Counted from the stretch's first letter, positions 2,005 through 39,075 are shown. The stretch is 39,082 nt of DNA from a bacterium (GCA_023267595.1 JAHFNB010000005.1:1-39082); one strand, 5' to 3'. Notes: generated by a model from the letters alone, not told the origin. Numbers and translations are program-made.

Positions 2005-2013
2005 TGCTATTAT
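2005..2013 (+). promoter_or_regulatory. Extended -10 box, 6 nt before ATG 2020
   Basis: TGcTATTAT, then gtacat, then ATG. Confidence 0.5.
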
Positions 2014-2019
2014 GTACAT

Positions 2020-2655
2020 ATGAATCTATCTGATATTTCTCTTGTTGGAATAAAAGGAGTTCTCCTTGACTTTGATAATACGTTCTATGACTACACACCT
2101 GCTCATGAGGCTTCACTTCTTGCAGTATTTGAAGTATTTAAAAATACTCACAAAGTTTCGTATGAAGATTTTATCTCTCTCTATAGTGACGCGCAAAAAA
2201 AAGTAAAATTACTCACCAATAATCAAGCAGCAAGTCATTCTCGTCTTTTATATTTTCAAAAGATGATTGAACATTTGGAACATACAACTAATATACAAGA
2301 AATAGTAATTCTCGAAGAACTGTATTGGTCTACATTTGAAAAGCATATGATACCAAAAAAAGAGATATTTGATTTCATAAAAAAATGCAAAGAAAATGGC
2401 ATAAAAACCTGTATTGTAACTGACTTGACCGCAGGGGTGCAATTCCGTAAAATGAGGGCAATAGGTGTGGATACATTGACTGATTTTGTTGTAACTTCAG
2501 AAGAGGCAGGGGCAGAAAAACCACATTCGGCAGTATTTACTCTCGCATTAGAAAAATTACAACTCTCTCCTTCGGATGTGATCATGATCGGTGACGATAC
2601 TAAAAAAGATATAGATGGAGCACATACACACGGAATTAAAGCATACATGGTCTAA
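2020..2655 (+). CDS. HAD-superfamily hydrolase (subfamily IA-like phosphatase)
   Basis: Motif I is LLDFDNT. Motif II is IVTDLT. Motifs III/IV are K...MIGDDTKKDIDGA. Confidence 0.8.
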   Translation: MNLSDISLVGIKGVLLDFDNTFYDYTPAHEASLLAVFEVFKNTHKVSYEDFISLYSDAQKKVKLLTNNQAASHSRLLYFQKMIEHLEHTTNIQEIVILEELYWSTFEKHMIPKKEIFDFIKKCKENGIKTCIVTDLTAGVQFRKMRAIGVDTLTDFVVTSEEAGAEKPHSAVFTLALEKLQLSPSDVIMIGDDTKKDIDGAHTHGIKAYMV

Positions 2656-4780
2656 TATAAAGTCCTTTTTTTCTTCGGCTATAGTTGTTTGTAAACCACT
2701 TCTTACATCTCCACTCTTTCTCATACCACTTTGTATAAAAATTGTTTTCTCATATTTTTTTGCATCAGAGAGTGTAACGGAATCTCTCATTCCTTTTGTA
2801 AAATATTTTGCATTTGAAAATAATAATCCGTATACACACTTTTATACACAAGGACTTACGAATGCATTTCCATACCCGACACTCATGATGTTGCTATTGG
2901 GTAGTTTCTATAGTTTCTTTGGTGCTTTTTCCGACATGCTCCACAATAGTCTTACGCATGTAGATATTTTAATTGAACGTATTCCACTCCTTATTGCAGA
3001 TATTGGAATACTCGCGGTGTTACTATCATGGTTTAAAAAAAGATATACAGAAATATTATGGCTCTACTGGTGTTCTCCGATACTTTTCTATATTAGTTAT
3101 ATTCATGGACAAGTAGATGCTATCCCTATTTTTTTCCTCTTTTGTTTCTTATATTTCTTATTTAAGGAGTATGATTACCTCGCACTTATTTTCTTAGGAC
3201 TAGCAATAGCAACAAAATTTGGTATTGTTATTGTGTTTCCGTTTGTTCTTTTATATCTCATCAAAGAACGAGAAAATATCTGGGTGTCATTATGCAAGAT
3301 ACTTATTCCGATTATCATATTTATAGGTATTAACATTTCAAATCTATTTAACCCTGCATTTATAGGAATGGTATTTGCAACAAAAGAAGGATTGAAAGTG
3401 TTTGATGTTGTAGTTGCATATAATCAAAATCTTTTCTTGTATGTTATTCCCATGGCATTTTGTATCTTACTCTTTGGATTTTTTACGTTTAAGAAATATA
3501 GTAGAGATCTATTCCTTGTGTTCTTAGGATTTACATTCTTTATTTTGACATTATGTATTCCTCCAATGCAGGGATGGTATTTCTGGATAATTCCATTTGC
3601 GGTATATTTTTATACATATGCTACTGAACGAGAGAGAATACTGTATTACAGTATTACTCTTGTCTACTTTTTATATTTTGCAGTTATTAAGAGTTCAGAT
3701 TATTTCTCAGTATTTTCTCTTTCATCAGAGAGATTTGCTTCTATTCCGAACCTCTATCATATAGGTATGGAAAATGGGATACCTATGGATTTTATAGTGA
3801 ATCTTTCTTTTACACTCCTTCAAGTTGTACTCCTCCTTAATATTTACTGGATATATAGAAAAGGGATAGAGCAATATATGAGGTATAAGATGCATTATAA
3901 GCCGTATTTAGTTGGTGTGGCAGGGGATTCTGGAAGTGGTAAGACGACGCTTGCCGAGTTACTTAGTGATGTTTTTGCACGTCGAAATGTTTCTGTTGTT
4001 GCGGGAGATGATTTACATAAATGGGAACGGGGGAATGATATGTGGACCAAATACACACATCTAGATCCTCGAGCAAATGAATTACATACAGATATTCATA
4101 GTGTGTATTCTATGAAACAAGGACAATCTATTTTACGTAGACATTATGATCATACATCAGGTACGTTCACGCTCCCACAAAAGTATGCGTCGAAGCGTCT
4201 TGTTATTTTCGAAGGATTACATTCACTTTTCTTAGAAAAAGTACGCAAAGCCTTTGATCTTAAAATATTTATTTCTCCTGAAGAGCAGTTACAATTGCAT
4301 TGGAAAATTATTCGTGATTTTGAGCATAGAGGTTATTCAAAAGAAGATGTGATGCAACAAATACAATTGCGTATACAAGATAAAGAGCAGTTTATTATGG
4401 TGCAAGAAAAATATTCTGATATAGTTATTTCCCTTAAAAATAATTTTTCATTAGGAGATAGAATAGGGAACAAAGATGTAGCATTATCACTATTTCTTGA
4501 AATAACATGTGCCAATGATATCGGGTTACAATCACTTCTTGATGAAGTATCAAAGTATATGAATGTTGAATATCGTATTAAAGATGAGAAGCAACATATA
4601 AAGTTTAACGGAGTGATACGTAAAGAACATATACAAGAAATCGCAGAGACTATTATTCCAGAACTAGATGAATTGTCACTTGAGAATCGTGTATGGCATG
4701 ATAACTACAATGGTGTTATACAACTATTTGTTACATTGTATATGTTTGAATCAATGCGACTAGAACACTATGACTTATAA
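2615..4780 (+). CDS. Polytopic membrane domain (GT-C-like) fused to a phosphoribulokinase/uridine-kinase-family P-loop domain
   Basis: The N-terminal ~430 aa have many TM segments, with an acidic/aromatic first loop (ENNNPYTHFY..FPYP). The C-terminal part carries VGVAGDSGSGKTTLAELL, GDDLHKWER, LDPRANE, IFEGLH, DLKIFISPEE and IIRDFEHRGYS, typical of the PRK/Udk family. The start at 2615 overlaps the preceding gene by 41 nt, and there is no other ATG before residue ~90. Confidence 0.7.
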   Translation: MEHIHTELKHTWSNIKSFFSSAIVVCKPLLTSPLFLIPLCIKIVFSYFFASESVTESLIPFVKYFAFENNNPYTHFYTQGLTNAFPYPTLMMLLLGSFYSFFGAFSDMLHNSLTHVDILIERIPLLIADIGILAVLLSWFKKRYTEILWLYWCSPILFYISYIHGQVDAIPIFFLFCFLYFLFKEYDYLALIFLGLAIATKFGIVIVFPFVLLYLIKERENIWVSLCKILIPIIIFIGINISNLFNPAFIGMVFATKEGLKVFDVVVAYNQNLFLYVIPMAFCILLFGFFTFKKYSRDLFLVFLGFTFFILTLCIPPMQGWYFWIIPFAVYFYTYATERERILYYSITLVYFLYFAVIKSSDYFSVFSLSSERFASIPNLYHIGMENGIPMDFIVNLSFTLLQVVLLLNIYWIYRKGIEQYMRYKMHYKPYLVGVAGDSGSGKTTLAELLSDVFARRNVSVVAGDDLHKWERGNDMWTKYTHLDPRANELHTDIHSVYSMKQGQSILRRHYDHTSGTFTLPQKYASKRLVIFEGLHSLFLEKVRKAFDLKIFISPEEQLQLHWKIIRDFEHRGYSKEDVMQQIQLRIQDKEQFIMVQEKYSDIVISLKNNFSLGDRIGNKDVALSLFLEITCANDIGLQSLLDEVSKYMNVEYRIKDEKQHIKFNGVIRKEHIQEIAETIIPELDELSLENRVWHDNYNGVIQLFVTLYMFESMRLEHYDL

Positions 4781-6414: not shown

Positions 6415-6476
6415 TTTGAGTAAGTAGTCCTCAGTATACAATATGGGTAAATTTTGATAGATTGGAAGCACGAAAC

Positions 6477-7361
6477 ATGAAAATCATCATACCAATGTCA
6501 GGGCTTGGAAAGCGGTTTGTAGACGCAGGGTATGATATGCCGAAACCTCTTATTATAGTTGATGGGAAACCAATTATTGAACATGTGATTTCAGTATTTT
6601 CTGGAGACCATTCATTTGTTTTTATTTGCAGTAATGATCATTTGAAAGAAACAAACCTAGAGGAAGTACTACGTACTAGTAGACCAAACAGTACTATAAT
6701 TGGTATAGAAAAACACACACAAGGTCCGGTATATGCGCTCACACATGTTTACGATTATATTTTAGATGATGAAGAGGTAATGATTAGTTATTGTGACTAT
6801 GGGATGGATTTTGATTTTAATAATTTTCAAAATAAACTAAGAGAAGGAAATTTTGACGGTGCCGTGCCGTGCTATACAGGATTTCATCCACATTTATTAC
6901 ATGGGAACGTATATGCTGGAGTACGTGTTAATGAACATAATGTTATGATAGATATTAGAGAGAAACATTCTTTTACAGAAAATCCTATGGAGAGTCATCA
7001 TTCAGTCGGTGCGTATTATTTCAGACGTGGTAGTGATCTGAAGAAATATCATGATGAATTACTTGCATCGAATATTCGTCTGAATGGTGAAGCATATACG
7101 AGTATGATTTATTATTTGTATCTTCGTGATGGTCATAATATATATGTGCCAGAGGTGCAAAGATTTATGCAATGGGGGACACCGACAGATTTAGAAGAGT
7201 ATGAAGCATGGTCACGATACTTTCATAAACAATTAGGAAAAGAAAAAGGTAAGACAGATATTCCAGAGAGTCGTGAAAGATTTGTAAAGATACCGTATGA
7301 AGAAAAAACTACAGAGTATGAAAAATGTTATACTTACTGGGAAAACCACTTTACACATTAA
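6477..7361 (+). CDS. Sugar-phosphate nucleotidyltransferase (NTP_transferase fold), paralog 1
   Basis: MKIIIPMSGLGKRF..GYDMPKPLIIVDGKPIIEH is the G-x-G-x-R signature, and WGTPTDLEEY occurs late. A TGaTAGATT box lies 13 nt upstream. Confidence 0.7.
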   Translation: MKIIIPMSGLGKRFVDAGYDMPKPLIIVDGKPIIEHVISVFSGDHSFVFICSNDHLKETNLEEVLRTSRPNSTIIGIEKHTQGPVYALTHVYDYILDDEEVMISYCDYGMDFDFNNFQNKLREGNFDGAVPCYTGFHPHLLHGNVYAGVRVNEHNVMIDIREKHSFTENPMESHHSVGAYYFRRGSDLKKYHDELLASNIRLNGEAYTSMIYYLYLRDGHNIYVPEVQRFMQWGTPTDLEEYEAWSRYFHKQLGKEKGKTDIPESRERFVKIPYEEKTTEYEKCYTYWENHFTH

Positions 7362-11858: not shown

Positions 11859-11867
11859 TGATAGAAT
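11859..11867 (+). promoter_or_regulatory. Extended -10 box, 8 nt before ATG 11876
   Basis: TGaTAGAAT, then ctcgctat, then ATG. Confidence 0.5.
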
Positions 11868-11875
11868 CTCGCTAT

Positions 11876-12577
11876 ATGAATGAACCAACATTATCACTCG
11901 TATTACCTTGTTATAACGAAGTAGGAAATTTGCAAAATCTATTGAATGCATATAAACAAGTTATCAAAAGAGATGATATTGAAATAATTGTTGTTAATAA
12001 TGGTTCTCTAGATGAATCAGGAAAATTATTAGAAGAAATAAAACATAATTATCCGTTTTTAAAAATAGTTACTATTATAAAAAATGAAGGATATGGAAAT
12101 GGAATTATTACAGGACTTAAAGAAGCACGAGGTAAATATATCGGATGGTCACACGGCGATTTACAAACACCTCCAGAGGACGTTATTAGAGCATTAGAGA
12201 TAATTGAGAAAAATAAGTTAACTAATTTTCTTGTGAAAGGAAAAAGATATGGTCGTCCACCTGCTAATGTGTTTTTTACATTTGGAATGAGTATCTTTGA
12301 AACACTTTTATTTGGAAAAGTTTTATACGATATCAATGCTCAACCAAATATTTTTCCGAGAGAATTCTTTAAAGAGTGGGTAGATGCACCACTTGATTTT
12401 TCTTTAGATTTATATTGTTTGCATCTCGCAAAATCAAAACATATGAATGTGATTCGTTTTCCTGTTGAGTTCAGACAACGTGGTGCTGGAGTTTCTTCAT
12501 GGGACATTGGATGGAAAAGTAAATGGAAGTTTATAAAACGTACGTTAGCATTTAGTTTTAAGTTACGATTTTCATAA
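11876..12577 (+). CDS. GT2-family glycosyltransferase, polyprenyl-phosphate sugar synthase (DPM1/ArnC-like)
   Basis: Motifs: LSLVLPCYNEVGNL, IIVVNNGSLDES, SHGDLQ. At 233 aa it is the size of the soluble-plus-anchor type. Confidence 0.7.
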   Translation: MNEPTLSLVLPCYNEVGNLQNLLNAYKQVIKRDDIEIIVVNNGSLDESGKLLEEIKHNYPFLKIVTIIKNEGYGNGIITGLKEARGKYIGWSHGDLQTPPEDVIRALEIIEKNKLTNFLVKGKRYGRPPANVFFTFGMSIFETLLFGKVLYDINAQPNIFPREFFKEWVDAPLDFSLDLYCLHLAKSKHMNVIRFPVEFRQRGAGVSSWDIGWKSKWKFIKRTLAFSFKLRFS

Positions 12578-12589: not shown

Positions 12590-12598
12590 TGATATGCT
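12590..12598 (+). promoter_or_regulatory. Extended -10 box, 6 nt before ATG 12605
   Basis: TGaTATGCT, then tgtagc, then ATG. Confidence 0.5.
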
Positions 12599-12604
12599 TG
12601 TAGC

Positions 12605-13612
12605 ATGAACTGTAAACAAGTACTTTTAAAAGATGTTACTTCCTTTCATATAGGAGGTGAGGCTGATATTGTCATCCTTACAAATGAAGATGATATTCGT
12701 GAAGTATATGAGTATGCACGTACACATACTCTCCAAGTACATATTTTAGGTGGTGGAACCAATACAGTCTTTAAAGATGGTCATTCAAATACACTTATTG
12801 CTAAGATGGAAATGAAGGGGCAGACAATAGAAAATACAGAAACTGAGAATGATGTATTTGTTACTGTAATGGCAGGGGAGAATTGGGATGATATTGTGCA
12901 GTACGCAGTAGAAAATAACTTGTGGGGGATAGAAAACCTATCGTATATTCCAGGGACGGTAGGTGCAGCACCAGTACAAAATATTGGAGCATACGGTATG
13001 GAATTAGACGATTCTATAGTTTCCGTGCGAGTATTTGATTCTGTAAAAAATGATTTTGTAGAATTGAATAAACATGATTGCCAGTTTGGATATCGAGATT
13101 CAATTTTAAAAAGAGAAAAAAATAGGTACTGTATTGTATCAGTTACGTTACAACTTTCAAAAACAAAAAAACCAGTTCTTACCTACAAACCACTTGATCG
13201 CTTGAAAGAAAAAGAAAGTGTAACACTACAAGAGATACGAGACACAGTTGTCGGAATAAGAAAACAAAAACTTCCAGATTATACTCTCTATGGAAATGCA
13301 GGGTCATTTTTCAAGAATCCAATACTGAGTCGTAGTGAAAGTGAAGAGTTATGTAAACGATATTTAACTGCACCAATTTATAAAGTTGAGAATGGTTATA
13401 AAATAGCAGCAGCATGGCTCATTGAGCATGTGGCTAGTATGAAAGGGGTACGAAAAGGAAATGTTGGAACATGGCCTACACAACCGCTTGTGATTGTAAA
13501 TTATGGCGGAGCAACATTAGAAGAATTGAATGATTTTGCTTCATCAATTGTACAAACTATAGAAAATAATGCAGGAATTCGTCTCGAAAGAGAGGTTCAG
13601 ATTGTAGAGTAA
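12605..13612 (+). CDS. murB: UDP-N-acetylenolpyruvoylglucosamine reductase
   Basis: FAD-binding N-terminus FHIGGEADIV...ILGGGTNTVF, plus GIENLSYIPGTVGAAPVQNIGAYG, FGYRDSILK, GSFFKNP and AAWLIE. Confidence 0.85.
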   Translation: MNCKQVLLKDVTSFHIGGEADIVILTNEDDIREVYEYARTHTLQVHILGGGTNTVFKDGHSNTLIAKMEMKGQTIENTETENDVFVTVMAGENWDDIVQYAVENNLWGIENLSYIPGTVGAAPVQNIGAYGMELDDSIVSVRVFDSVKNDFVELNKHDCQFGYRDSILKREKNRYCIVSVTLQLSKTKKPVLTYKPLDRLKEKESVTLQEIRDTVVGIRKQKLPDYTLYGNAGSFFKNPILSRSESEELCKRYLTAPIYKVENGYKIAAAWLIEHVASMKGVRKGNVGTWPTQPLVIVNYGGATLEELNDFASSIVQTIENNAGIRLEREVQIVE

Positions 13613-14340: not shown

Positions 14341-14428
14341 CTAACACATTGAAAAATAAGATTCACAAATAAAGCCGCGGCGAAAGTCAAGGCTTTTTTC
14401 TTTGTCTAATCTCTGTTAGGATGTGATG

Positions 14429-15115
14429 ATGATTGGGACACTCTATATAGTACCGACTCCTATTGGGAATCTAGAAGATATGACACTACGAGCAATTCGT
14501 ATTTTAAAAGGTGTTGATTTAGTCTTGTGTGAAGATACATCTGTTACACAAAAATTATTTAATCATTATGATATTACTACACCAACGAGTGTCTTTTTTG
14601 CACAAACAAAATTAAAAAATATAGATAAGATTACGGGTCTTTTAGAAGAAGGAAAACAAATTGCTCTTGTGTCTGATGCAGGGACTCCGACGATTTCAGA
14701 TCCTGGAGTATTACTGGTTGATAGAGTTCGTAGTGAATTACCTGAAGTAAAAGTTGTTGCATTACCAGGACCATCTGCACTTACCACAGCACTTTCTGTT
14801 TCGGGGATATCATCTGCACAATTTGTTTTCTTAGGATTTTTACCACATAAAAAGGGGAGAGAAACATTGTTTAAAGAAATTGCAGAAAGTAAAAGAACTA
14901 TGGTGTTCTATGAATCGGTGCATCGTATAGAAAAGACTTTAGAATCGTTAAGTGACTGTATTATTGCACCACGCCAAATTGTTATAGCACGAGAATTAAC
15001 CAAAGTGTATGAAGAAGTTATTTTTGGAACAAGTAAAGAAGTAAAAAGTTATTTCAGTAAGAAGAAAGATAAAATACGAGGGGAATTTGTTGTAATTATT
15101 GAAGGGAAAAAGTAG
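14429..15115 (+). CDS. rsmI: 16S rRNA (cytidine1402-2'-O)-methyltransferase
   Basis: Motifs: GTLYIVPTPIGNLEDMTLRA, LCEDT, SDAGTP.ISDPG, GPSA. Three candidate starts exist (GTG 14423, ATG 14426, ATG 14429). TGtTAGGAT at 14414-14422 favours 14429. Confidence 0.85.
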   Translation: MIGTLYIVPTPIGNLEDMTLRAIRILKGVDLVLCEDTSVTQKLFNHYDITTPTSVFFAQTKLKNIDKITGLLEEGKQIALVSDAGTPTISDPGVLLVDRVRSELPEVKVVALPGPSALTTALSVSGISSAQFVFLGFLPHKKGRETLFKEIAESKRTMVFYESVHRIEKTLESLSDCIIAPRQIVIARELTKVYEEVIFGTSKEVKSYFSKKKDKIRGEFVVIIEGKK

Positions 15116-15125: not shown

Positions 15126-15134
15126 TGGTATACT
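15126..15134 (+). promoter_or_regulatory. Extended -10 box
   Basis: TGgTATACT lies ~33 nt upstream of ATG 15168. Confidence 0.4.
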
Positions 15135-15167
15135 GAGTGCTTAGAAATTCTTTTTTGGAGAAGAGTA

Positions 15168-15368
15168 ATGCGATACTGTTGGCAATGTAGTACAGAAATA
15201 ATACTATGCAATGGTTATGTGGGAGGAGACATTGCTGCACTCCTTGTAGGTGAAGAGCCAAAGTCTCCTATTTATGAGACGTGTAGCAAATGTGTAGAAC
15301 GTTACGAAGCAGCCATAGAACTAGGGTTACCAAAACCATTCCTCCTTCCTTCGGAAAAACCTGCCTGA
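15168..15368 (+). CDS. Small zinc-ribbon-like protein (CxxC...CxxC), 66 aa
   Basis: MRYCWQC...CSKC. GGAG lies ~7 nt upstream, and the terminator hairpin encloses the stop codon. The ORF-track start at 15099 overlaps rsmI and is less likely. Confidence 0.45.
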   Translation: MRYCWQCSTEIILCNGYVGGDIAALLVGEEPKSPIYETCSKCVERYEAAIELGLPKPFLLPSEKPA

Positions 15369-15384: not shown

Positions 15385-15419
15385 CTTCTTCTTTCTGCTT
15401 TCTTTATACTGGGATCATT

Positions 15420-15632
15420 ATGTCACCTCTAGGGATTAAACGCACAATAGCAGTATTATTGATACTTTCTCCTTGGATTTTTGTACCAGGGTTATTTAAA
15501 GATTTTGTTTTCATTATCGCAGGAGTATTTCTTTTTATTAGTACACTTGATTTACGAAAGAAATCATCTATTTCGCATGTTCATCAAGAAAATGAAAGTA
15601 TTCCTGTAATTCAAACAGAAACAACAGCATGA
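15420..15632 (+). CDS. Small membrane protein, 70 aa (two hydrophobic segments)
   Basis: TATACT ends 9 nt before the ATG, and the stop overlaps the next start (ATGA). Confidence 0.5.
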   Translation: MSPLGIKRTIAVLLILSPWIFVPGLFKDFVFIIAGVFLFISTLDLRKKSSISHVHQENESIPVIQTETTA

Positions 15633-16849: not shown

Positions 16850-16856
16850 TATTTTC

Positions 16857-24640: not shown

Positions 24641-24652
24641 TGAAATGTAACT

Positions 24653-27878: not shown

Positions 27879-27887
27879 TGGTATAAT
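27879..27887 (+). promoter_or_regulatory. Extended -10 box, 9 nt before ATG 27897
   Basis: TGgTATAAT, then gtgaaaata, then ATG. Confidence 0.5.
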
Positions 27888-27896
27888 GTGAAAATA

Positions 27897-29654
27897 ATGA
27901 GTGAATACATATTAGGTATCCATTTTGGGCATGACTCTACGGCTACTCTCATGAAAGATGGGGAGGTTATTGAGGCCATGCAAGAGGAGCGTCTTTCTCG
28001 TATTAAAAAATATGTAGGGTTTCCACATATGTCTGTGGACTATATCAAAAAGAAATACAATATAGAATTATTTTCACATGTTATTGTCGATGGATTAGAG
28101 TTTGGTGGACATGTATTTGAAACATATGAAAGTAATAAGATATATCGTTCAAAAGATAATCGTGGATCATATTTTAATCGTGCGCTAGGAGCACGATTTC
28201 CTATGATTGGAGAAATCTATCGTGTTATTGATATATCACGTTTTCTTAAAAATATTGTGAATATGGAAACAAAGACGAGAAGTTATCTTGCAGAACTTTT
28301 CCCACAAGCAACTGTTTCTTTTATTCACCACCATTATAGTCATGCATGGGCAACTGTGCCATTTATGCCAGATGATAGAAAAAGACTTATTCTTACATTA
28401 GATGGACAGGGAGATGATTTATCTGGGTCAATAAATATATTTGAAAATGGGAATATTAAAGTTCTTCATCGGTTCAAAAGAGAAAATTCTCTGGGACTTC
28501 TCTATAGTTCTATTGTAGATATTTTGGGAATGGCACGAAATGAACATGAGTTTAAAGTGATGGGTCTTGCACCATATGCAAAAAAGTCTTCTGGTGAAAA
28601 AGTATATGAACTATTGAAAAAGTTGGTATGGTTTGATGAAGATACTATGGAAATGAAATCGTCCATTGATACACGTCGTGCCACAGGATACTTGGTTGCA
28701 AATGATTATAATCAACATCGTTTTGATTCGTTAGCCTATGGTATACAAAAGTTAACAGAGGAAATTATAAAAGATATTGCTCGTGCAGCAATAAAAAAAT
28801 ATAATTGCGGAGATATTGCAATAGGGGGTGGGGTATTTATGAATGTAAAAGCAAATCAATATTTACTAGAAATGCCTGAGGTCACTTCTCTTGTTATGGC
28901 ACCATCATGTGGTGATGAATCACTTGCCATTGGAAATGCTATCTATGGTTATGCACAATTACACAACAATGATATATCAGGATTAAAGAAGATAGAAAAC
29001 TTATATCTTGGTTCAGAATATTCTGATGAAAACATTAAGAAAGAAATAGATGCATATCCTTTTACAAAAGAGTGTGATATTACCTATTTTGATCCAACAA
29101 GTGATAATACTATTGAGAAAAAGGTAGCAGAAATCCTTTCGCATAATAGTGTTGTAGGACGATTAAAAGGTCGTGGAGAATGGGGGGCACGCGCATTAGG
29201 TAATCGTTCTATATTGGCAAATCCTATGTCACGAGATAATGTAAAACTCATTAATGAAATGATAAAAGGGAGAGATTTTTGGATGCCATTTGCAACATCC
29301 ATGCTCTATGAACGTAGAAATGATTATCTTCATGTGACAAAAGATTTATATGCACCATTTATGGCTATTACGTTTAATACAAAAGATATTGCCCACAAAG
29401 AATTAATTGCTGCACTTCATCCATATGATTTAACATCACGTCCACAAATGGTAAAGAAGGAGATAAACAAAGAATACCACTCACTTATCAGTGAGTTTGA
29501 AAAGTTAACAGGTGTAGGAGGAATACTTAACACATCATTTAACCTTCATGGTGAACCAAATGTGGAAACACCACTTGATGCACTGCGCACTTTTGAACAT
29601 TCAGGATTACCACATGTTGCAATTGGAAATTACTTAATTTCAAAAAAGAATTAA
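27897..29654 (+). CDS. Carbamoyltransferase (NodU/CmcH/NovN family)
   Basis: Motifs: ILGIHFGHDSTATLMKDGEVIEAMQEERLSRIK, HHHYSHA, GGGVFMNVKAN, GEWGARALGNRSILA, NTSFNLHGEPNV. Confidence 0.85.
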   Translation: MSEYILGIHFGHDSTATLMKDGEVIEAMQEERLSRIKKYVGFPHMSVDYIKKKYNIELFSHVIVDGLEFGGHVFETYESNKIYRSKDNRGSYFNRALGARFPMIGEIYRVIDISRFLKNIVNMETKTRSYLAELFPQATVSFIHHHYSHAWATVPFMPDDRKRLILTLDGQGDDLSGSINIFENGNIKVLHRFKRENSLGLLYSSIVDILGMARNEHEFKVMGLAPYAKKSSGEKVYELLKKLVWFDEDTMEMKSSIDTRRATGYLVANDYNQHRFDSLAYGIQKLTEEIIKDIARAAIKKYNCGDIAIGGGVFMNVKANQYLLEMPEVTSLVMAPSCGDESLAIGNAIYGYAQLHNNDISGLKKIENLYLGSEYSDENIKKEIDAYPFTKECDITYFDPTSDNTIEKKVAEILSHNSVVGRLKGRGEWGARALGNRSILANPMSRDNVKLINEMIKGRDFWMPFATSMLYERRNDYLHVTKDLYAPFMAITFNTKDIAHKELIAALHPYDLTSRPQMVKKEINKEYHSLISEFEKLTGVGGILNTSFNLHGEPNVETPLDALRTFEHSGLPHVAIGNYLISKKN

Positions 29655-30577
29655 AGAGAAATAGGTTCTATTGTAGCAACAAAGTTTGGAATAGTTTCAT
29701 CAATGAGAATTTTTTCTATAAGTGATGTGAAGTTCTCTTTTGGAATCTTTGTATGTAATGTATCAATTGCATAGATAGAATAACCAAGTGAATCTAGGAA
29801 TGTGAGTATATCTATACTTTTACCTTTGTAGTCTTGCTCGTAAAGATGAGGACTGAATTCAAAGATAATAGTCGGTGTATATGTTGCTATAGTATTTTTA
29901 CCTCCTTGCAATGCTTCGTATTCATATCCTTCGACATCAAGTTTTATAACATCAACATTCTTAATATGTGCTAATTCTTTATCAAGCATTGTTACATCAA
30001 TTGAAACACTATGTGATGCACCATTTTTATTGGTGATAGATGTGAGTCCTGCATCTTCATCATGAAGATAAATAGTTTCATAACCATCTTTATTTCCTGC
30101 TGCTTTTTCAATCACCGTAATATTTGAAAACGCATTAAGAGCAATAGATTCTTTAATTTGGGAAACAAGATGTGGTATCGGTTCAAAAGCATAGACATGA
30201 CCACTGTCTCCAACAAGATGTGCACCATAGAGAGTTTCATATCCAATATTTGCACCAATATCTACAAATGTAGAACCGCGGTGTAATCTTTCTTTCATGA
30301 TAGCAATGACATCCACATCTCTTTGGTGATGAAGAAATAGTTCTGCATCTGTGCCACCATTCTTTGGATCGATAACAATTCTAAGTGGTGTATCTTTGAT
30401 AGTAATATTCTGACGATGTGTAAAAACAGTATGAATATGATTTTTGTGGACTGTATTTGGTATATATGAGAAGAAAAATCTATATAGTACAAGAATACCT
30501 TTATAGATGAAATCTGGTAGAATACCTTTTATGGAACGTTTAACCAATTTTTTGAATCGGAAGAAGATGGTAGTCAT
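29651..30577 (-). CDS. FkbM-family SAM-dependent methyltransferase, copy 2
   Basis: Motifs: FVDIGANIGYETLYGA, GHVYAFEPIP, VDVIKLDVEGYEYEAL. Confidence 0.75.
   Translation of the reverse strand: MTTIFFRFKKLVKRSIKGILPDFIYKGILVLYRFFFSYIPNTVHKNHIHTVFTHRQNITIKDTPLRIVIDPKNGGTDAELFLHHQRDVDVIAIMKERLHRGSTFVDIGANIGYETLYGAHLVGDSGHVYAFEPIPHLVSQIKESIALNAFSNITVIEKAAGNKDGYETIYLHDEDAGLTSITNKNGASHSVSIDVTMLDKELAHIKNVDVIKLDVEGYEYEALQGGKNTIATYTPTIIFEFSPHLYEQDYKGKSIDILTFLDSLGYSIYAIDTLHTKIPKENFTSLIEKILIDETIPNFVATIEPISL
30515..30523 (+). promoter_or_regulatory. Extended -10 box, 7 nt before in-frame ATG 30531 (inside the divergent FkbM gene)
   Basis: TGgTAGAAT, then acctttt, then ATG. Confidence 0.45.
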
Positions 30578-32337: not shown

Positions 32338-33032
32338 ACAAATTTAAAAATCTTTTTTAAAAGTTCTTTTATACCAAGTGTTTCTGTTATAGTTACACCG
32401 AGACTATGTATTCCCATGTTTTTAAAAAGTCTATTGAGTGGATTTCCCCATGAGTAGTGCCATAAATGTATTCCGTATACATCTTTTTCCATTTCCTGTC
32501 CGTGCCATTCTTTGATATGTTCACTATCAAACGGATAAAAGGCTAATGGAGGTAAGATAGTGAGTGAACCTTTATGTTCGTACGTATCAAACACCTTTGA
32601 AAGAATGCGAGGGATAGTGATCAATTCTTGTGGATTCTCATCATACATCTTTTTACATTCTGTAATAAATGGATGATGTGGGATAGCACCTATCATACCA
32701 GCACTAATGATACCTCGTTTTTCTTCGCCTAAGATACACTCGTTAACACATAAGGGGGATAATGATTGGAGAAGTAACATATCAGTATCAAGATAAAATC
32801 CTCCATGAGTTTCCAGTATGGCTAATCGTACATGGTCTACAACAAAAGCCCATTTTTTTTCAGAATACATTCGTGATGCAAAAGGGAGGTTTTCAACTGA
32901 AAAATTAAGTTCATTCCACTCTTTGATTTCAAAATCAGAGTTATGTTTTTTCCAACTTTCTATGCAAGAAATGGTTTCATCACTTTTTTGTTCTGGTCCA
33001 AACCAACAATAATGAATTATTTTTGGGATCAT
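32334..33032 (-). CDS. GT32-type glycosyltransferase (DXD sugar-binding motif family)
   Basis: Motifs: IPKIIHYCWFG, YLDTDM. Confidence 0.7.
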   Translation of the reverse strand: MIPKIIHYCWFGPEQKSDETISCIESWKKHNSDFEIKEWNELNFSVENLPFASRMYSEKKWAFVVDHVRLAILETHGGFYLDTDMLLLQSLSPLCVNECILGEEKRGIISAGMIGAIPHHPFITECKKMYDENPQELITIPRILSKVFDTYEHKGSLTILPPLAFYPFDSEHIKEWHGQEMEKDVYGIHLWHYSWGNPLNRLFKNMGIHSLGVTITETLGIKELLKKIFKFV

Positions 33033-33045
33033 AGTAATTCCCTAT

Positions 33046-33054
33046 ATTTTACCA
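33046..33054 (-). promoter_or_regulatory. Extended -10 box (minus strand), 13 nt before ATG 33032
   Basis: Reads TGgTAAAAT on the minus strand. Confidence 0.4.
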
Positions 33055-33098: not shown

Positions 33099-33107
33099 TG
33101 ATATACT
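33099..33107 (+). promoter_or_regulatory. Extended -10 box upstream of 33135
   Basis: TGaTATACT, with a 27-nt gap to the ATG. Confidence 0.45.
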
Positions 33108-33134
33108 TTTTCCATTAATCATTAAAAACCAAGT

Positions 33135-35354
33135 ATGCAAAGTTTTATTAAAAACAGTGTGTGGGTTGCTCTCTGTATTATTCCGTTTATTGCTGTCTAT
33201 ATAGCAAATGGACAAGGATTTGATTTCATCAATTGGGGGACACCGGGAATGTTTTTTCCATTTATTTCCGGTAAGAATCTTATATTCCGTGTCCTTGTAG
33301 AAATAGCCTTCGCAGGATGGGTAATACTTGCTCTTTATGATACAAAATATCGTATTAGTATTAAAAAATCTCCACTTACTATCGCATACCTCGTTTTTAT
33401 AGGTATCTTACTTGTTGCAGATATATTCGGGGTTGATCCAATGAAAAGTATTTGGAGTAATTTTGAACGTATGGAAGGATTTGTAGGCCATATTCACTTC
33501 TTTATCTATTTCTTTGTTTTAACTGCAATGCTTCATACGCTTAAAGAATGGCAGACAATGCTTAAGGTATTTATCTGGGCAAATATAGCAGTACTTTTTT
33601 ATGGGTATTGCCAATTAATGGGAGCACCAGGATATATTTTTGCAGATAATCTTCCTGCAAAAATAGTTTCTTACTTCTCTACTGCTTTTCCAGTACATCA
33701 AGGAGGTAATCGACTCGATGCAACAATCGGCAACTCTGCATACTATGCCATCTTTTGTCTTATGTCTGCGTTTATTGCAGGAGTACTTTGGTCACAAATG
33801 CAGAATCCAAAGCAATCACGATTTTATCCGATTCTTATCTTTCTTAACTTCGTAGCAATATTCTACTCTGGAACTCGTGGAACTATTATTGGTCTAGTTT
33901 TCGGTGTACTTGTATCACTTGGTCTTATTGCGTGGCATGAAAAAGGAAAAGCAAGAAAAGTTTTTATTGGTGTGTTACTTGCACTTGCACTTTCTCTTGG
34001 AACATTGCTTGCTTTTAAAGAAACAGATTTTGTAAAATCATCTTCTACACTGTACCGTCTCTCTCATATCTCGCTTGTGGATTTAACGACGATGAGTCGT
34101 ATCTCTATTTGGAAAATAAGTTATGAGGCATGGTTAGAACGGCCAATACTTGGTTATGGACAGGATAATTTCAGTTATATTTATGCTCGTAAGTTTAATC
34201 CAGAAATAATGTGGAATCTTGAACCATGGTATGACCGTTCTCATGATGTATTCTTCGATTGGTTAGTTGCAGGAGGAATACTAGGACTTCTGTCATATTT
34301 ATCGCTATTTGCGGTAGCAATGTGGCTTATGTGGCGGTCTGGAAGTATTATGCCATTCCGCGAAAAAGCAATCATTACAGGTGCACTTGCTGGGTATTTT
34401 ATTCACAATGTTATTGTGTTTGATAACTTAACAAGTTATATCTTATTCTTTGCATTACTTGCTTATATCGTTATTCGTACTGGGGGAGATAAGTTGTTTG
34501 AAAATGGCAAAACCGGTATCAGTACTGAAACTATAAAATTACTCTATGCTCCGATTGTTGGTATTGTACTTGTAGTAACACTCTATTATGTAAACTATCG
34601 TCCGTTTATGGTTAACAGATTACTCATAGGTGCCATGAATGTAAATCAACTTATGCAAAGTATGTCATTTGCAGATGCAGTAAAGATACAAGAGAAATCA
34701 TTTACAGAAGCAATAGCATTAAATACATTAGGTAGCGATGAGGCACGTGAACAATTTTTACAGATGGGTGTACGATTAGTACAAGTAAAACTCCCAACAG
34801 GAATGTCTAAGGAAGAAACACAGTTCTCAACTGAGGCTATCAATTCATTTATCACAAAAGTTCGTGAGGATGTAACATCTTCGTATGATGCTCATAAAAC
34901 AGATGTCCGCATGCTCTCTATTTATGGAATGTTTTTTAATGGCATAGGAGATGGTCCACAAGGGGAGAAGATTCTTACGGAGGCGCATACACTCGCACCA
35001 AATAAACAACTTATTTCTTTCGACTTAGTTCGTTCATACTTACTACAAAGAAAGTTTAAGGAGGCCTATACTCTTGCGCATGAGACATATGATTTACAAC
35101 AAAAGTTCCCTGATGCACAAAAGATATACCTCATTACTTCTGCATATGTAGGAGCATTTAGAGCAGCACAAAATCAGATTATTCAAACAGGTCAGACGGT
35201 ACCATTTGATGCAGATATCTTAAATGCAGTTGTTACTTCAGGACAAATATCTCTTGCGATAGAACTCTTAAATGATGTAAAAGCCCAGAATCCACAGTTT
35301 ACTGCTCAGATAGATGATTACATCAAAAAACTACTTGTCTCTCCTTCAAAATAG
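33135..35354 (+). CDS. O-antigen ligase/polymerase-like (Wzy_C family) membrane protein with helical-repeat C-terminal domain
   Basis: Motifs: GNSAYYAIF, YSGTRGTIIGL, SRISIWK..W..PILGYGQDNF, SHDVFFDWLVAGGILG. The ~250-aa soluble C-terminus has a TPR-like composition. Confidence 0.7.
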   Translation: MQSFIKNSVWVALCIIPFIAVYIANGQGFDFINWGTPGMFFPFISGKNLIFRVLVEIAFAGWVILALYDTKYRISIKKSPLTIAYLVFIGILLVADIFGVDPMKSIWSNFERMEGFVGHIHFFIYFFVLTAMLHTLKEWQTMLKVFIWANIAVLFYGYCQLMGAPGYIFADNLPAKIVSYFSTAFPVHQGGNRLDATIGNSAYYAIFCLMSAFIAGVLWSQMQNPKQSRFYPILIFLNFVAIFYSGTRGTIIGLVFGVLVSLGLIAWHEKGKARKVFIGVLLALALSLGTLLAFKETDFVKSSSTLYRLSHISLVDLTTMSRISIWKISYEAWLERPILGYGQDNFSYIYARKFNPEIMWNLEPWYDRSHDVFFDWLVAGGILGLLSYLSLFAVAMWLMWRSGSIMPFREKAIITGALAGYFIHNVIVFDNLTSYILFFALLAYIVIRTGGDKLFENGKTGISTETIKLLYAPIVGIVLVVTLYYVNYRPFMVNRLLIGAMNVNQLMQSMSFADAVKIQEKSFTEAIALNTLGSDEAREQFLQMGVRLVQVKLPTGMSKEETQFSTEAINSFITKVREDVTSSYDAHKTDVRMLSIYGMFFNGIGDGPQGEKILTEAHTLAPNKQLISFDLVRSYLLQRKFKEAYTLAHETYDLQQKFPDAQKIYLITSAYVGAFRAAQNQIIQTGQTVPFDADILNAVVTSGQISLAIELLNDVKAQNPQFTAQIDDYIKKLLVSPSK

Positions 35355-35620: not shown

Positions 35621-36802
35621 CTAGCAATTTTCTATTGACCATGAACCATTTGCCACTAACTTTGATTTCGGTTTTACTCCTTCTGAAATGTGAAGTAATC
35701 CAGTGGATGCAATCATAAGACCATTATCTGTTGATAAATCTTTATCCGGGAGAAAGATAGTAAACCCTTCAGTTGTTGCTAATTCTTTGAGTGCAGATCT
35801 AATATGAATATTTGCACTTACTCCACCACCTACGATTAATGTTTTCGCACGAGTTTCATACATTGCTTGTTTTACTTTTGCAACAAGGACATCAGTGATG
35901 GAATTTTCAAATTCAAGCGATAGCATTTTCTTAGTCTCATCAGTAAGAGGTTTTCTTTTATGTACCCGTGTGAGTACTGCAGTTTTTAATCCACTACATG
36001 AAAAATGTAAATCCCCACTATGAAGCATTGGTCGTGGAAGTCGTAAATCTTCATCTGGGACTATTCCTTCTTTTCGTGCTAGTTCTGCTAACCTCGATAT
36101 TTGTGGTCCTCCAGGATATGGTAAATCAAGCATGCGGGCTGCTTTGTCAAATGCTTCACCAACTGCATCATCTTTTGTTTTTCCTATCACTTTGTATGAA
36201 CGTAATTTTGAAATACGAACAATTTCAGTATGACCTCCTGAAATTAAAAGTGCACATGCAGGAAATGAAATATCTGGTATCGAGTAGGTCGTATCTTCTT
36301 TTGATAGGATACCTGCAATGACATGACCTTCCATATGATTGATAGGGTATAGTGGTATATCCCAAACAGTACTTAATGCAAGTGCGCTTGTAATACCTAT
36401 CCATAATGCAGGTTCCAGTCCAGGACCTTGTGTAACTGCAATTGCATCAATGGCCGGCTTTTGTATCCCTTCAAAAAGTACTTTCATGGCTGTTAGCATA
36501 TCTTTTTCTCGGTCAAGAATATTTTCTAGTTTTTTACGTGAAGTAGACGGGATATGGTATACGTGTGTGCGTTCTACGAGTAAATCTGCTTCCTGAAGTG
36601 ATTCTGCGATGAGTTGAGTGAGAGCCTTTGCGTGTTCACGTTTTGCAAGCATTGGAAATACGCCACCATATTTTGCATGGAGGTCTACTTGTGAAAGAAT
36701 CTTATGAGAAAGTACTTCAAAACGTACATGTTTACCACGACTTCGTTTGATGATACATACTGCAGTTTCATCACAACTGGTCTCTATAGAAAGCAAAATC
36801 AT
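35621..36802 (-). CDS. tsaD: tRNA N6-adenosine threonylcarbamoyltransferase
   Basis: Motifs: ILLSIETSCDETAV, GGVFP..A.REH, VTQGPGL, INHMEGH, LISGGHT, DDAVGEAFDK, GGGVSAN, DNGLMIA. Confidence 0.9.
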   Translation of the reverse strand: MILLSIETSCDETAVCIIKRSRGKHVRFEVLSHKILSQVDLHAKYGGVFPMLAKREHAKALTQLIAESLQEADLLVERTHVYHIPSTSRKKLENILDREKDMLTAMKVLFEGIQKPAIDAIAVTQGPGLEPALWIGITSALALSTVWDIPLYPINHMEGHVIAGILSKEDTTYSIPDISFPACALLISGGHTEIVRISKLRSYKVIGKTKDDAVGEAFDKAARMLDLPYPGGPQISRLAELARKEGIVPDEDLRLPRPMLHSGDLHFSCSGLKTAVLTRVHKRKPLTDETKKMLSLEFENSITDVLVAKVKQAMYETRAKTLIVGGGVSANIHIRSALKELATTEGFTIFLPDKDLSTDNGLMIASTGLLHISEGVKPKSKLVANGSWSIENC

Positions 36803-36808
36803 GTCATT

Positions 36809-36817
36809 ATTATAACA
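36809..36817 (-). promoter_or_regulatory. Extended -10 box (minus strand), 6 nt before tsaD ATG
   Basis: Reads TGtTATAAT, then aatgac, then ATG on the minus strand. Confidence 0.5.
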
Positions 36818-36837: not shown

Positions 36838-36846
36838 TGGTATAAT
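36838..36846 (+). promoter_or_regulatory. Extended -10 box, 15 nt before ATG 36862
   Basis: TGgTATAAT. The ATG at 36847 abuts the -10 box and so is unlikely to be the start. Confidence 0.45.
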
Positions 36847-36861
36847 ATGGTAACGTTACGT

Positions 36862-37590
36862 ATGAAAGGCATTATTTTATCCGGTGGATCAGGTACACGA
36901 CTACGTCCGCTTACACGAGTTACATCAAAACAATTATTGCCAATTTATAATCGGCCAATGATTTACTATCCTCTTAATACGCTTATAAAAGCAGGTATAA
37001 AAGAAATACTTATTATTATTGCACCAGAAAAAGCAGGAGAATATTTAAATCTTTTAGGATCTGGAAAAGAATTTGGAGTAAAGTTTACCTATGAGATACA
37101 AGATAAACCAAAGGGATTATCCGAAGCCTTTATTATTGGAGAAAAGTTCTTAGATGATGGTGATGATGTAGTTATGATACTCGGGGATAATATCTTTGAA
37201 GAAGATTTGTCAAAGCAGATTGCTTCATTTACAAAAGGTGCACGTATTTTTGCAAAAGAAGTTCATGATCCAGAGCGTTTTGGTGTTGTAGAATTTGACA
37301 AAACTGGAAAAGTTATTTCAATAGAAGAAAAACCAAAAAAGCCAAAGAGTAATTTTGCTATTACAGGTATGTATATATTCGATTCACGTGCAGTTTCTTT
37401 TGCTAAGAAATTAAAACCAAGTAAACGTAATGAATTAGAGATTACTGACCTTATTAAATGCTATATAAAGAGTAAAGAACTTGATGTAAGTATTATCAAG
37501 AAAGAATGGATTGATGCAGGAACATTTGATTCACTTGCTCGCGCAAATCGCTTAGCACAAGAAAAGTTGCATAAGAACTTAATTATTTAA
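36862..37590 (+). CDS. Glucose-1-phosphate thymidylyl/uridylyltransferase-like (short RmlA-type sugar-1-P nucleotidyltransferase)
   Basis: Motifs: MKGIILSGGSGTRLRPLT...SKQLLPIYNRPMIYYPL, LGDNIF, ERFGVVEF, EKPKKPKSNFAITGMY. Confidence 0.8.
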   Translation: MKGIILSGGSGTRLRPLTRVTSKQLLPIYNRPMIYYPLNTLIKAGIKEILIIIAPEKAGEYLNLLGSGKEFGVKFTYEIQDKPKGLSEAFIIGEKFLDDGDDVVMILGDNIFEEDLSKQIASFTKGARIFAKEVHDPERFGVVEFDKTGKVISIEEKPKKPKSNFAITGMYIFDSRAVSFAKKLKPSKRNELEITDLIKCYIKSKELDVSIIKKEWIDAGTFDSLARANRLAQEKLHKNLII

Positions 37591-37592
37591 GA

Positions 37593-38591
37593 TTATTTAT
37601 CTTTCGGCAAAACATTTACTATATTTTGTACCAACCCTTGTGTTTCATAGTTTCCAACAGAAAGCCATGTAGGTAGTCCTAACGTACAAATACCGTTTGT
37701 GTCTTTTGCAAGAGCCATACCACCAGAGTTTCCATTATCAATTTTTGCGGATACGAAATAGTTAGGTTCTCCTACTTGAGATGTGTCATAACCAGAAATG
37801 ATTCCGTTTGTTACGGTACGATAAATGACATTTACTGTACCTATGGTATCTATAGTCAGTGTTGAGTCTCGTTTCGCATATGCAGGATAACCAATGATAA
37901 CTACTGGAGAACCAACAGGCATAAGTGACGGACATTTACGAACTTTTGCGAGGCTATAGTTATAGTTTGCTACAGGAACGCTTAGTGGAGATAGTGAAGG
38001 GCCAATAGTGAGAATTGCCTCGTCAGTGTTTTGATTAAAGGTATAAATAGAACCTTGAATACTGAACAATCCAGTTGTCTGATTTGCACTATTTGTTATA
38101 GACATAATACAACCGTTTGCTCCTTTGATTACATGGTAATTTGTCACAATAGCATATGGGACTTCTTTGAAGTTCCATAATGTTCCACTGCCACTTGATA
38201 CACCATCTTTTATATTACAAAGGACTTGCACAACTCCAGTAGTATATGGTGTTAGATCAGCAGAGGTAATAACAATATCTTTAGGGTCTTTTGCTTGGTT
38301 CTCAAGTGTTTGCGTCAGTGTTTTTATTTGTGCATTTGTTTTATCTGCACTTACTTTTGTTTTTACAAGTTCTTCTTTTGCTTGATCAAGTGCCATTTGT
38401 TGTGCATCGATGAGTTCCTGCGCTTTTTCTTCTTGTGATTGAAGAATTAATTTTTGATTTGCTTCAGTGAGTATAATTTTCTTGTACAGTCTATACCCAC
38501 CATATGAAAGTCCTAGAATGGTACATAGTATGAGAATCATACCTCCTATCATGACATGCCATGCAACTGTTAATGTGATACGTTTTGTCAT
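37593..38591 (-). CDS. Membrane-anchored trypsin-like serine protease (S1/HtrA-like, no PDZ seen)
   Basis: N-terminal TM, then a coiled-coil-like stretch, then the catalytic triad contexts TNYHVI (His), TDEAIL (Asp) and DNGNSGG (Ser). Confidence 0.75.
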   Translation of the reverse strand: MTKRITLTVAWHVMIGGMILILCTILGLSYGGYRLYKKIILTEANQKLILQSQEEKAQELIDAQQMALDQAKEELVKTKVSADKTNAQIKTLTQTLENQAKDPKDIVITSADLTPYTTGVVQVLCNIKDGVSSGSGTLWNFKEVPYAIVTNYHVIKGANGCIMSITNSANQTTGLFSIQGSIYTFNQNTDEAILTIGPSLSPLSVPVANYNYSLAKVRKCPSLMPVGSPVVIIGYPAYAKRDSTLTIDTIGTVNVIYRTVTNGIISGYDTSQVGEPNYFVSAKIDNGNSGGMALAKDTNGICTLGLPTWLSVGNYETQGLVQNIVNVLPKDK

Positions 38592-38628
38592 TTGCTAGTA
38601 AGCCTTAGATATCGTAGAGTATATCATG

Positions 38629-39075
38629 ATGAAAATCCTTATTTTGAGTATTGGTAAAGAACATAATGATGTCTATGAAGACAGTATCAGGCATTTCCAA
38701 ATGCGGATTTTACGCTACCTTCCACTTGAATGGTTGTACATTCCTCATGATGTGACAAAAGAAAAAGAAGGAGAAAAAATACTCTCTCATATCAAGAAAG
38801 AAGATTACGTAGTTTTACTTGATGAAAAAGGAAAGGATATAAAAAGTGAAGCATTAGCAGAACTTATAGAAAATAGAATGGTAGATGGTGCACGTAAAAT
38901 GGTGTTTATTATAGGTGGTGCATATGGTGTTTCAAAGAATATTGAAGAACGTGCGAACTATACATGGAAGTTATCGTCACTTATATTTCCTCATATGTTA
39001 GTGCGAGTGATTGTTCTAGAACAGATTTATCGTGCAATGACGATAATCAAAGGGGAGAAGTATCATCATGAGTAG
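38629..39075 (+). CDS. rlmH: 23S rRNA (pseudouridine1915-N3)-methyltransferase
   Basis: SPOUT family: MKILILSIGK..., LDEKGK, FIIGGAYGVS, LSSLIFPHMLVRVIVLEQIYRA. ATG 38626 is an alternative start. Confidence 0.85.
   Translation: MKILILSIGKEHNDVYEDSIRHFQMRILRYLPLEWLYIPHDVTKEKEGEKILSHIKKEDYVVLLDEKGKDIKSEALAELIENRMVDGARKMVFIIGGAYGVSKNIEERANYTWKLSSLIFPHMLVRVIVLEQIYRAMTIIKGEKYHHE

Follow-up and report, generated by a model that had tools for sequence, protein, structure and literature searches.

Leaderless-rich bacteria have been described among the Actinobacteria (Mycobacterium, Streptomyces) and Deinococcus-Thermus, which make up GeneMarkS-2 group C (PMC6028130, PMC4007540, PMC4633059, PMC3160421). 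In genomes of this group a Pribnow box lies 6-8 nucleotides (nt) from the starts of first-in-operon genes, leaderless transcription units are estimated at 25-50% of the total, and translation begins at a 5'-terminal AUG. Here we describe a similar arrangement in a 39,082-nt stretch of bacterial DNA (GCA_023267595.1 JAHFNB010000005.1:1-39082, the whole of which is called the window) and in the genome to which it belongs, where extended -10 promoter boxes stand a few nt before start codons and the mRNAs that they lead very probably begin at or within a few nt of the AUG, as judged from the spacing and anatomy of the boxes. Group C keeps the anti-Shine-Dalgarno (anti-SD) sequence and uses Shine-Dalgarno (SD) sites at leadered and internal genes, whereas the present genome has no anti-SD and essentially no SD. 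Moreover, this tiny genome is AT-rich, and its promoters belong to the TGn-extended type. The Candidate Phyla Radiation (CPR) goes unmentioned in the main text of the GeneMarkS-2 paper, in which group C consists of Actinobacteria and Deinococcus-Thermus.

Other described systems resemble this genome in part. Loss of the anti-SD has been published for a subgroup of Parcubacteria that lacks the ribosomal protein uL1 (Tsurumaki et al. 2022, RNA 28:1041; PMC9297842). That paper is silent on how translation then starts (the word 'leaderless' occurs 0 times), and the promoter-to-ATG architecture reported here is an addition to it. The Bacteroidota (GeneMarkS-2 group B) are comparable in that the leadered genes of our genome also have A-rich, G-poor upstream regions without SD; the Bacteroidota, unlike this genome, keep an anti-SD, of which they make little use, and they do not belong to the leaderless-rich bacteria. 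Leaderless-dominated archaea (Haloferax, Sulfolobus; GeneMarkS-2 group D) share the many leaderless first genes and the weak use of SD, but differ in having a TATA/BRE promoter about 26 nt upstream and another set of initiation factors. The mechanism is thus a known one, and the lineage's loss of the anti-SD is published; its leaderless architecture is not, as far as the searchable literature shows, since no paper found there joins leaderless initiation with Parcubacteria, Patescibacteria or CPR, and the word occurs in passing or in reference lists only.

The window is the entire contig C6 of a 6-contig, 611-kb genome with 36% guanine plus cytosine (GC) and a completeness of 95.5%. It opens with the 3' part of a 16S rRNA gene, which is followed by a tRNA-Ile gene and then by protein genes. 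The closest relatives of its TsaD protein (66-89% identity) come from metagenome-assembled genomes titled Candidatus Nomurabacteria, Paceibacterota or Parcubacteria, some of them auto-labelled Saccharibacteria. By this measure the organism is a CPR/Patescibacteria bacterium of the Parcubacteria/Paceibacteria 'Nomurabacteria' kind, the Parcubacteria/Paceibacteria affiliation being read from the record titles of TsaD relatives only.

Extended -10 boxes at start codons

Genes were called genome-wide (578 genes) with a simple caller based on open reading frames (ORFs) and codon usage, in which the start is the first in-frame ATG. We distinguish an extended box, TGNTANNNT (TGnTAnnnT), a strict box, TGNTANAMT, and a plain box, TANNNT, and count as the gap the nt between the end of the box and the ATG. 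The null models were 200 dinucleotide-preserving shuffles and the other 6-nt gap windows of the same upstream regions, and 50 kb of E. coli K-12 (52 genes) passed through the same pipeline as a positive control for SD sites.

A preliminary description of the window had listed 13 boxes directly before ATGs and five more with gaps of 12-15 nt, and all of them are present with the sequences and positions given there (Table 1). Genome-wide, the extended box ends 5-10 nt before the ATG in 119 of the 578 genes, compared with 7.9 +- 2.9 in shuffles (maximum 18), an excess of about 15-fold, and with 8-23 genes in the other gap windows. The plain box, at the same gaps, precedes 271 genes against 131.5 +- 9.4 in shuffles. 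Extended boxes number 1 at gap 5 and 49, 25, 16 and 21 at gaps 6, 7, 8 and 9; the counts then fall to 7 and 4, before a minor second rise to 11 at gap 12. Background counts are 0-4 at each gap, and interior in-frame ATGs are preceded by a box in 0-0.4% of cases per gap. The -10 box is therefore localised about 6-8 nt from starts, as it is in group C. TATACT is the most enriched hexamer at -20..-1 (93 occurrences, against 8 at -60..-41). A search anchored on the boxes themselves, which makes no use of gene calls, gave an ATG at gap 6-9 for 100 of 280 strict boxes on both strands (40, 22, 18 and 20 at gaps 6, 7, 8 and 9, with a background of about 5 per gap), while a reversed-pattern control gave 14, and in E. 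coli K-12 the box precedes 1 of 52 genes. The shuffled control, which the preliminary description had named beforehand as a possible refutation, thus left the box-to-ATG spacing far above background, and these results confirm the observation, which AT-richness does not account for.

Several features identify the box as a promoter element. Extended -10 (TGn) sigma-70 promoters occur in E. coli and Gram-positive bacteria, where the -35 element is dispensable or weak. The aligned boxes have this anatomy, with T at -15 (0.55) and G at -14 (0.51), one base upstream of the T-A-t-A-c/a-T that follows, and with a -35 region barely above background. A strong -35 element was considered and rejected, the aligned boxes showing a weak TTG trace alone. 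What sets this genome apart from E. coli and the Gram-positives is that the extended -10 is apparently its dominant promoter type and is set directly against start codons. Upstream of 22 of 37 tRNA genes the same TGNTANNNT box is found, in most cases 10-15 nt from the mature 5' end, and because tRNA genes are untranslated the box must act on transcription, independently of translation. By its anatomy and its distribution, then, the box is to be regarded as a promoter and not as a ribosome site. The placement of the tRNA boxes (e.g., at C4:19173-19247 and C3:111801-111874) would leave tRNA 5' leaders of about 3-8 nt for RNase P to remove.

The spacing of the boxes is what points to leaderless mRNAs. 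At sigma-70 promoters transcription starts about 7 nt past the last T of the -10 hexamer, so that a box at the modal gap, 6 nt, predicts a +1 on the A of the ATG, and gaps of 7-9 nt would give leaders of 0-3 nt. At gaps 6-9 after strict boxes on both strands, ATG is the one start codon in excess (4.4-fold); the counts for GTG (2, 0, 3 and 0) and TTG (2, 0, 3 and 2) show no enrichment. Leaderless initiation depends on a 5'-terminal AUG, and the enrichment of ATG alone fits this dependence. At tsaD, 32 of 77 orthologous loci in other species have an extended box at gap 5-10 and none has one at gaps 0-5; the box-to-ATG spacing is kept among the orthologues while the spacer sequences diverge.

The box also settles starts that would otherwise be ambiguous, as had been proposed; in the window these include 11876, 14429, 27897 and 30531. 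The box at 11859 favours ATG 11876 over GTG 11858, and that at 14414 favours ATG 14429 over GTG 14423 and ATG 14426. The Pfam domain starts agree with these choices: the domains begin at residues 1-7 of the proteins read from box-adjacent ATGs, which argues that these ATGs are the real starts.

How large a share of the genes is led in this way was estimated in two ways. The excess over decoys of a cross-validated position weight matrix corresponds to 21-25% of all genes, and the looser TANNNT excess to about 31%; we therefore estimate that about 21-31% of all genes would be leaderless, a substantial share, as in leaderless-rich genomes, where about 25% or more of transcription units are affected. 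A rough partition of the 578 genes gives 119 with an extended box, 131 with TANNNT only (a large share of which are chance hits), 102 that are tightly coupled to the upstream gene (-20..+10 nt), 17 that have an extended box at a downstream ATG, 26 that are SD-like and 183 in none of these classes. The upstream regions of this rest class are A-rich and G-poor, and about a third of the genes look leadered without SD. The term 'pervasive', which had been applied to leaderless starts, does not extend to all genes.

Genes that lie 16-60 nt behind a gene on the same strand have an extended box in 28-38% of cases and TANNNT in 62-65%, which suggests that many apparently operon-internal genes have a leaderless promoter of their own within the end of the upstream gene. 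One such 'internal' gene begins at ATG 16857: its box lies across the stop codon of the gene before it and would give it a separate leaderless promoter. For the operon-internal genes, the window examples are as first described: ATGA occurs at 15629 and TAATG at 8888, and the starts at 8193 and 18534 follow spacers of 2-3 nt. The statement that such genes often overlap the upstream stop was too strong: of 417 same-strand pairs, 10 are at -4 and 5 at -1, so that 15 overlap by 4 or 1 nt, and 49 are at 0..+5 nt. Termination-reinitiation at these internal genes is plausible.

The ribosome and Shine-Dalgarno pairing

The absence of an anti-SD, also noted in the preliminary description, holds when the 16S end is aligned to the end of the RF00177 model. 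Positions 578-592 read GGATTAATTCAATG in place of GGATCACCTCCTTA, and the rRNA tail at the very end of the model is GGAUUAAUUCAAUG where GGAUCACCUCCUUU is expected, without CCUCC. The tail is identical across the genus, and in the 15 other families of the order whose 16S end could be read it is GGAWUWWUUCAA-like and never CCUCC. The sequence that replaces the anti-SD is thus semi-conserved in the order (GGAWUWWUUCAA), and a GTCGAT-like motif, which may be part of a processing stem, recurs about 45-60 nt downstream of it. Compared with the bacterial model, the gene also has a 115-nt insertion at about 131-245, near model position 1158; CPR 16S genes typically contain insertions of this sort.

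SD signals are missing from the mRNA side as well. Genome-wide there is no G enrichment at -15..-3 (G content 0.10-0.17), and GGAGG-N4-9-ATG has 89 occurrences and its reversed control 79, which amounts to no SD signal, while the same pipeline found an SD at 30 of 52 E. coli K-12 genes. The SD-type ribosome-binding sites that group C has at its remaining leadered and internal genes are accordingly not found here, apart from about 27 SD-like genes. The altered tail does not appear to have acquired a pairing partner of its own. A 'new SD' was rejected as a candidate, since 5- and 6-mers complementary to the genome's own 16S tail are not enriched before starts (z = -3.8 for all genes and 0.0 for box-less genes). 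AATTA, TTAAT and TAATC are in about 2-fold excess upstream, but flat by position, and reflect AT-richness and overlap with the -10 box.

Neither uL1 (PF00687) nor bS21 was found in the 95.5%-complete genome; the same uL1 profile matched 14 of 14 control genomes. A homologue of S1 is present (G000:C2:16477-17493, minus strand), although it is short (389 amino acids [aa]) and scores 177 bits against a cut-off of 577 for the rpsA model. With a 16S end lacking CCUCCU, no uL1 found and Parcubacteria, Paceibacterota or Nomurabacteria as relatives, the genome fits the published anti-SD-lacking Parcubacteria subgroup (PMC9297842).

A minority of genes departs from this pattern. About 27 genes carry GGAG or GAGG 5-9 nt before the ATG despite the missing anti-SD, compared with a positional background of 9-13. 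These SD-like genes have a higher GC content than box-led genes (0.391 vs 0.351, p = 3e-9), encode shorter proteins (125 vs 255 aa) and occur in clusters, for example in the tRNA-rich region of contig C4 at 74-98 kb. Three SD-led units lie in the window (Table 1), and for these the loci of relatives that were compared hold no homologues or weak ones; of the two units beside the 16S gene, only the minus-strand ORF at 879-1232 has weak homologues, which are also located just 3' of the 16S gene, in three congeners. The GC-richer SD-led units look like recent imports. The preliminary description had spoken of a coherent non-canonical initiation regime; the SD-like genes are exceptions to a uniform one, and the tie between the boxes and the loss of the anti-SD is loose.

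Proposed initiation mechanism, alternatives and relatives

We consider it likely that extended -10 promoters set against start codons give rise to leaderless or near-leaderless mRNAs and that these are loaded by the ribosome without SD pairing. A sigma-70-type RNA polymerase would use extended -10 promoters (TGnTAtAcT) with little or no -35, the box ending 6-9 nt before the ATG at about a quarter to a third of genes, which would correspond to about 35-55% of transcription-unit-first genes. Depending on the gap, transcription would begin with the A of the ATG itself (gap 6) or 1-3 nt upstream, and ribosome and initiator tRNA would load directly on the 5'-terminal AUG, with no need for SD pairing. 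Such an SD-free pathway fits a ribosome whose 16S tail has no CCUCC. For the remaining genes other routes may apply. About 18% of genes are tightly coupled to an upstream stop and would be translated by reinitiation, and about a third have A-rich, G-poor leaders without SD and may be served by an SD-independent route, possibly aided by the S1 homologue. The exact transcription start sites (TSSs) and the mode of ribosome loading are thus what we infer, whereas the positions, statistics, conservation and promoter nature of the boxes and the absence of SD and anti-SD are shown by the sequence analysis.

The proposal that extended -10 boxes place the start of transcription at or near the AUG agrees with all in-silico tests that were run, yet a number of observations weigh against it. 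Gaps of 8-9 nt, together with the five of 12-15 nt, imply leaders of 1-8 nt and not the absence of a leader. The leaderless share, at 21-31%, does not cover all genes, and about 183 of the 578 have neither box nor coupling nor SD. The window itself contains two clear leadered examples (33135 and, on the minus strand, 38591), and the SD-like genes exceed their background. Gene starts were set by the first-ATG heuristic. The tie to the loss of the anti-SD is loose, a similar leaderless signature being seen in relatives whose CCUCC is intact. Lastly, the base before the start codon is unusable as evidence for a TSS. A pyrimidine stands at -1 in 80-87% of all gene classes, compared with 54% before interior in-frame ATGs; T or C at this position was considered as the Y(-1)R(+1) signature of a TSS and rejected, for it cannot be a TSS effect alone when every class, coupled genes included, shows it. 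G is nearly excluded at -1 before start ATGs (6% or less).

Of the alternatives, the one that survives best, though we think it unlikely, accepts the boxes as real promoters and has transcription start elsewhere, owing to an unusual -10-to-TSS distance or to later start codons. The mRNAs would then have short or ordinary leaders and be translated independently of SD as in Bacteroidota. The frequency of gaps of 8-9 and 12-15 nt speaks for such an arrangement, as does the third of genes evidently leadered without SD, for which a route of this kind must exist here anyway. It is more difficult to reconcile with a modal gap of exactly 6 nt and its sharp onset (0-1 cases at gap 5 or less), and with the enrichment of ATG alone after the box, the Pfam profiles that start at residues 1-7 of box-adjacent ATGs, and the conservation of ATG and spacing among orthologues.

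Another possibility, which we regard as very improbable, is that TGnTAnnnT is not a promoter but works in the mRNA, where it would bind the ribosome independently of SD by pairing with the altered 16S tail. The distance of the motif from the ATG is indeed SD-like, and the altered tail is semi-conserved in the order (WWUUCAA); yet the motif precedes untranslated tRNA genes, has the TG-n-TAnnnT anatomy of extended -10 promoters, finds no counterpart in an enrichment of complements of the tail, and remains the same between families while the tail varies. That TAnnnT and ATG coincide by chance in AT-rich DNA, or that choosing the first ATG creates the pattern, can be dismissed almost entirely. At 36% GC plain TANNNT does fall by chance before about 23% of starts, but the extended box far exceeds both shuffles and offset windows, its ATG peak at gap 6 recurs without gene calls, and the reversed-pattern and E. 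coli controls lack the excess.

Relatives bear on the age of the start-adjacent promoters. Since 60-kb samples were too small, the comparison was made per genome, with whole-genome pattern counts set against a control pattern. In genomes of five other families of the same order the signature is present in 5 of 5 (47-62 matches vs 6-13 for the control pattern), and in a class sample TGNTANAMT-N6-9-ATG is in excess over the control in all 91 genomes, the present genome and its genus standing at the high end (100 vs 14 in 0.61 Mb). The readable 16S tails of the class sample are graded, with CCUCC in 17 genomes, UCUCC or ACUCC in 4, and UUUCC, UCUCU, UUUCU, AUCCA and AUUCA in others. One further family of the phylum shows a similar graded C-to-U decay of its anti-SD.

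A tight evolutionary link between loss of the anti-SD and leaderless architecture is not supported. Among 20 genomes that have CCUCC the median excess per Mb is 41, and among 20 whose tails are degenerate or lost it is 51 (Mann-Whitney p = 0.12, a value that overstates the difference as the genomes are related and not independent). The ratio of the GGAGG pattern to its control is 1.4-4.1 in genomes that have an anti-SD; in the order that lacks one it is 1.1-2.0, and in the present genome 1.1. On these counts, even genomes with an intact anti-SD make weak use of SD sites. Across the 44 relatives compared, heavy leaderless use is equally present with an intact anti-SD, which suggests that it does not result from the loss of the anti-SD, and relaxed selection on SD pairing is therefore the likely reason for the decay of the tail. 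The most economical reading would be that SD-independent, largely leaderless initiation is old in the group and that the anti-SD decays where it is unneeded. More tentatively, and with appreciably less confidence, one may imagine that SD-independent initiation, with leaderless first genes, is the default across the class and perhaps the phylum, that the anti-SD has been eroding repeatedly under relaxed selection, that the ribosome of this order is unable to use SD pairing, and that the SD-led cassettes are imports whose SD is irrelevant.

The architecture offers an answer to the question left by the study that reported the loss of the anti-SD (PMC9297842), namely that a large share of the mRNAs probably needs no ribosome-binding site. 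In practical terms, gene starts in such genomes are best called from the promoter box and not from a ribosome-binding-site model. If confirmed by TSS data, CPR would join the Actinobacteria and Deinococcus-Thermus as a major leaderless-rich group of bacteria.

Further features of the window

Table 1. Start-adjacent boxes, leadered counter-examples, SD-led units and RNA genes in the window.
Feature	Position (strand)	Start codon; gap	Remarks
TGCTATTAT	2005..2022 (+)	ATG 2020; 6 nt	HAD hydrolase; predicted leaderless start
TGATAGAAT	11859..11878 (+)	ATG 11876; 8 nt	GT2 glycosyltransferase; Pfam profile position 1 = residue 7
TGATATGCT	12590..12607 (+)	ATG 12605; 6 nt	MurB
TGTTAGGAT	14414..14431 (+)	ATG 14429; 6 nt	TP_methylase family; profile position 1 = residue 4
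TATACT	15405..15422 (+)	ATG 15420; 9 nt	69-aa ORF; next gene, 15629, overlaps by ATGA
TGATATACT	16841..16859 (+)	ATG 16857; 7 nt	TrwB/HerA-like ATPase
TATAAT	19836..19852 (+)	ATG 19850; 8 nt	NAD-dependent epimerase; TTGGAA -35 at 19813-19818 (from the preliminary description)
TGCTATACT	21878..21898 (+)	ATG 21896; 9 nt	RmlD-like; profile position 1 = residue 1
TATCAT	22742..22757 (+)	ATG 22755; 7 nt	GT-D glycosyltransferase; weak box without TG, 13 nt past upstream stop
TGGTATAAT	27879..27899 (+)	ATG 27897; 9 nt	carbamoyltransferase; box favours ATG 27897 over GTG 27888
TGGTAGAAT	30515..30533 (+)	ATG 30531; 7 nt	GT9; inside 5' end of divergent gene 29651-30577 (-)
TGTTATAAT	36800..36817 (-)	ATG 36802; 6 nt	TsaD
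TAGAGT	38615..38631 (+)	ATG 38629; 8 nt (or ATG 38626; 5 nt)	RlmH/SPOUT methyltransferase; Pfam profile position 1 = residue 1
TGATAGATT	6455..6479 (+)	ATG 6477; 13 nt	nucleotidyltransferase; predicted very short leader, about 6 nt
TGATATACT	21820..21843 (-)	ATG 21822; 12 nt	predicted short leader
TGCTATAAT	24638..24661 (-)	ATG 24640; 12 nt	predicted short leader
TGGTAAAAT	33030..33054 (-)	ATG 33032; 13 nt	predicted short leader
TGGTATAAT	36838..36864 (+)	ATG 36862; 15 nt	second, overlapping TGGTAACGT box at gap 5
TGATATACT, counter-example	33099..33137 (+)	ATG 33135; 27 nt	Wzy_C O-antigen ligase domain protein; predicted leader of about 20 nt, no SD
TGATATACT, counter-example	38589..38626 (-)	ATG 38591; 26 nt	leadered, no SD
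TGGTATACT, SD exception	15126..15368 (+)	ATG 15168; 33 nt	GGAG 15157-15160; 66-aa Cys-rich orphan, 43% GC
SD-led unit	879-1246 (-)		promoter, leader, SD, hairpin terminator
SD-led orphan cassette, first ORF	1299..1740 (+)	ATG 1358	TTGACT-N17-TATATT; GGAGG 4 nt before ATG; 77 aa
SD-led orphan cassette, second ORF	1299..1740 (+)	ATG 1602	GGAG before ATG; 29 aa; hairpin terminator about 1709-1740
16S rRNA gene, 3' part	1..592 (+)		cut by contig end; cmscan RF00177, 374 bits, aligned to model end 1533
tRNA-Ile	1914-1991		

No 23S gene follows the 16S gene. In its place, positions 600-1913 form a 1.3-kb stretch of 43% GC that extends up to the tRNA-Ile gene and holds two divergent SD-led orphan units.

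The divergent genes 29651-30577 (-) and 30531-31616 (+) overlap by 47 nt at their 5' ends, and the predicted leaderless promoter of the latter sits within the coding sequence of the former. The inositol-monophosphatase-family gene at 10868-11800 (+), with 41% GC, also appears to be leadered: a site resembling a promoter (TTGACA-N16-TAGTGT) precedes it, together with a leader of about 45 nt, and the opposite strand carries a shadow ORF as long as the gene.

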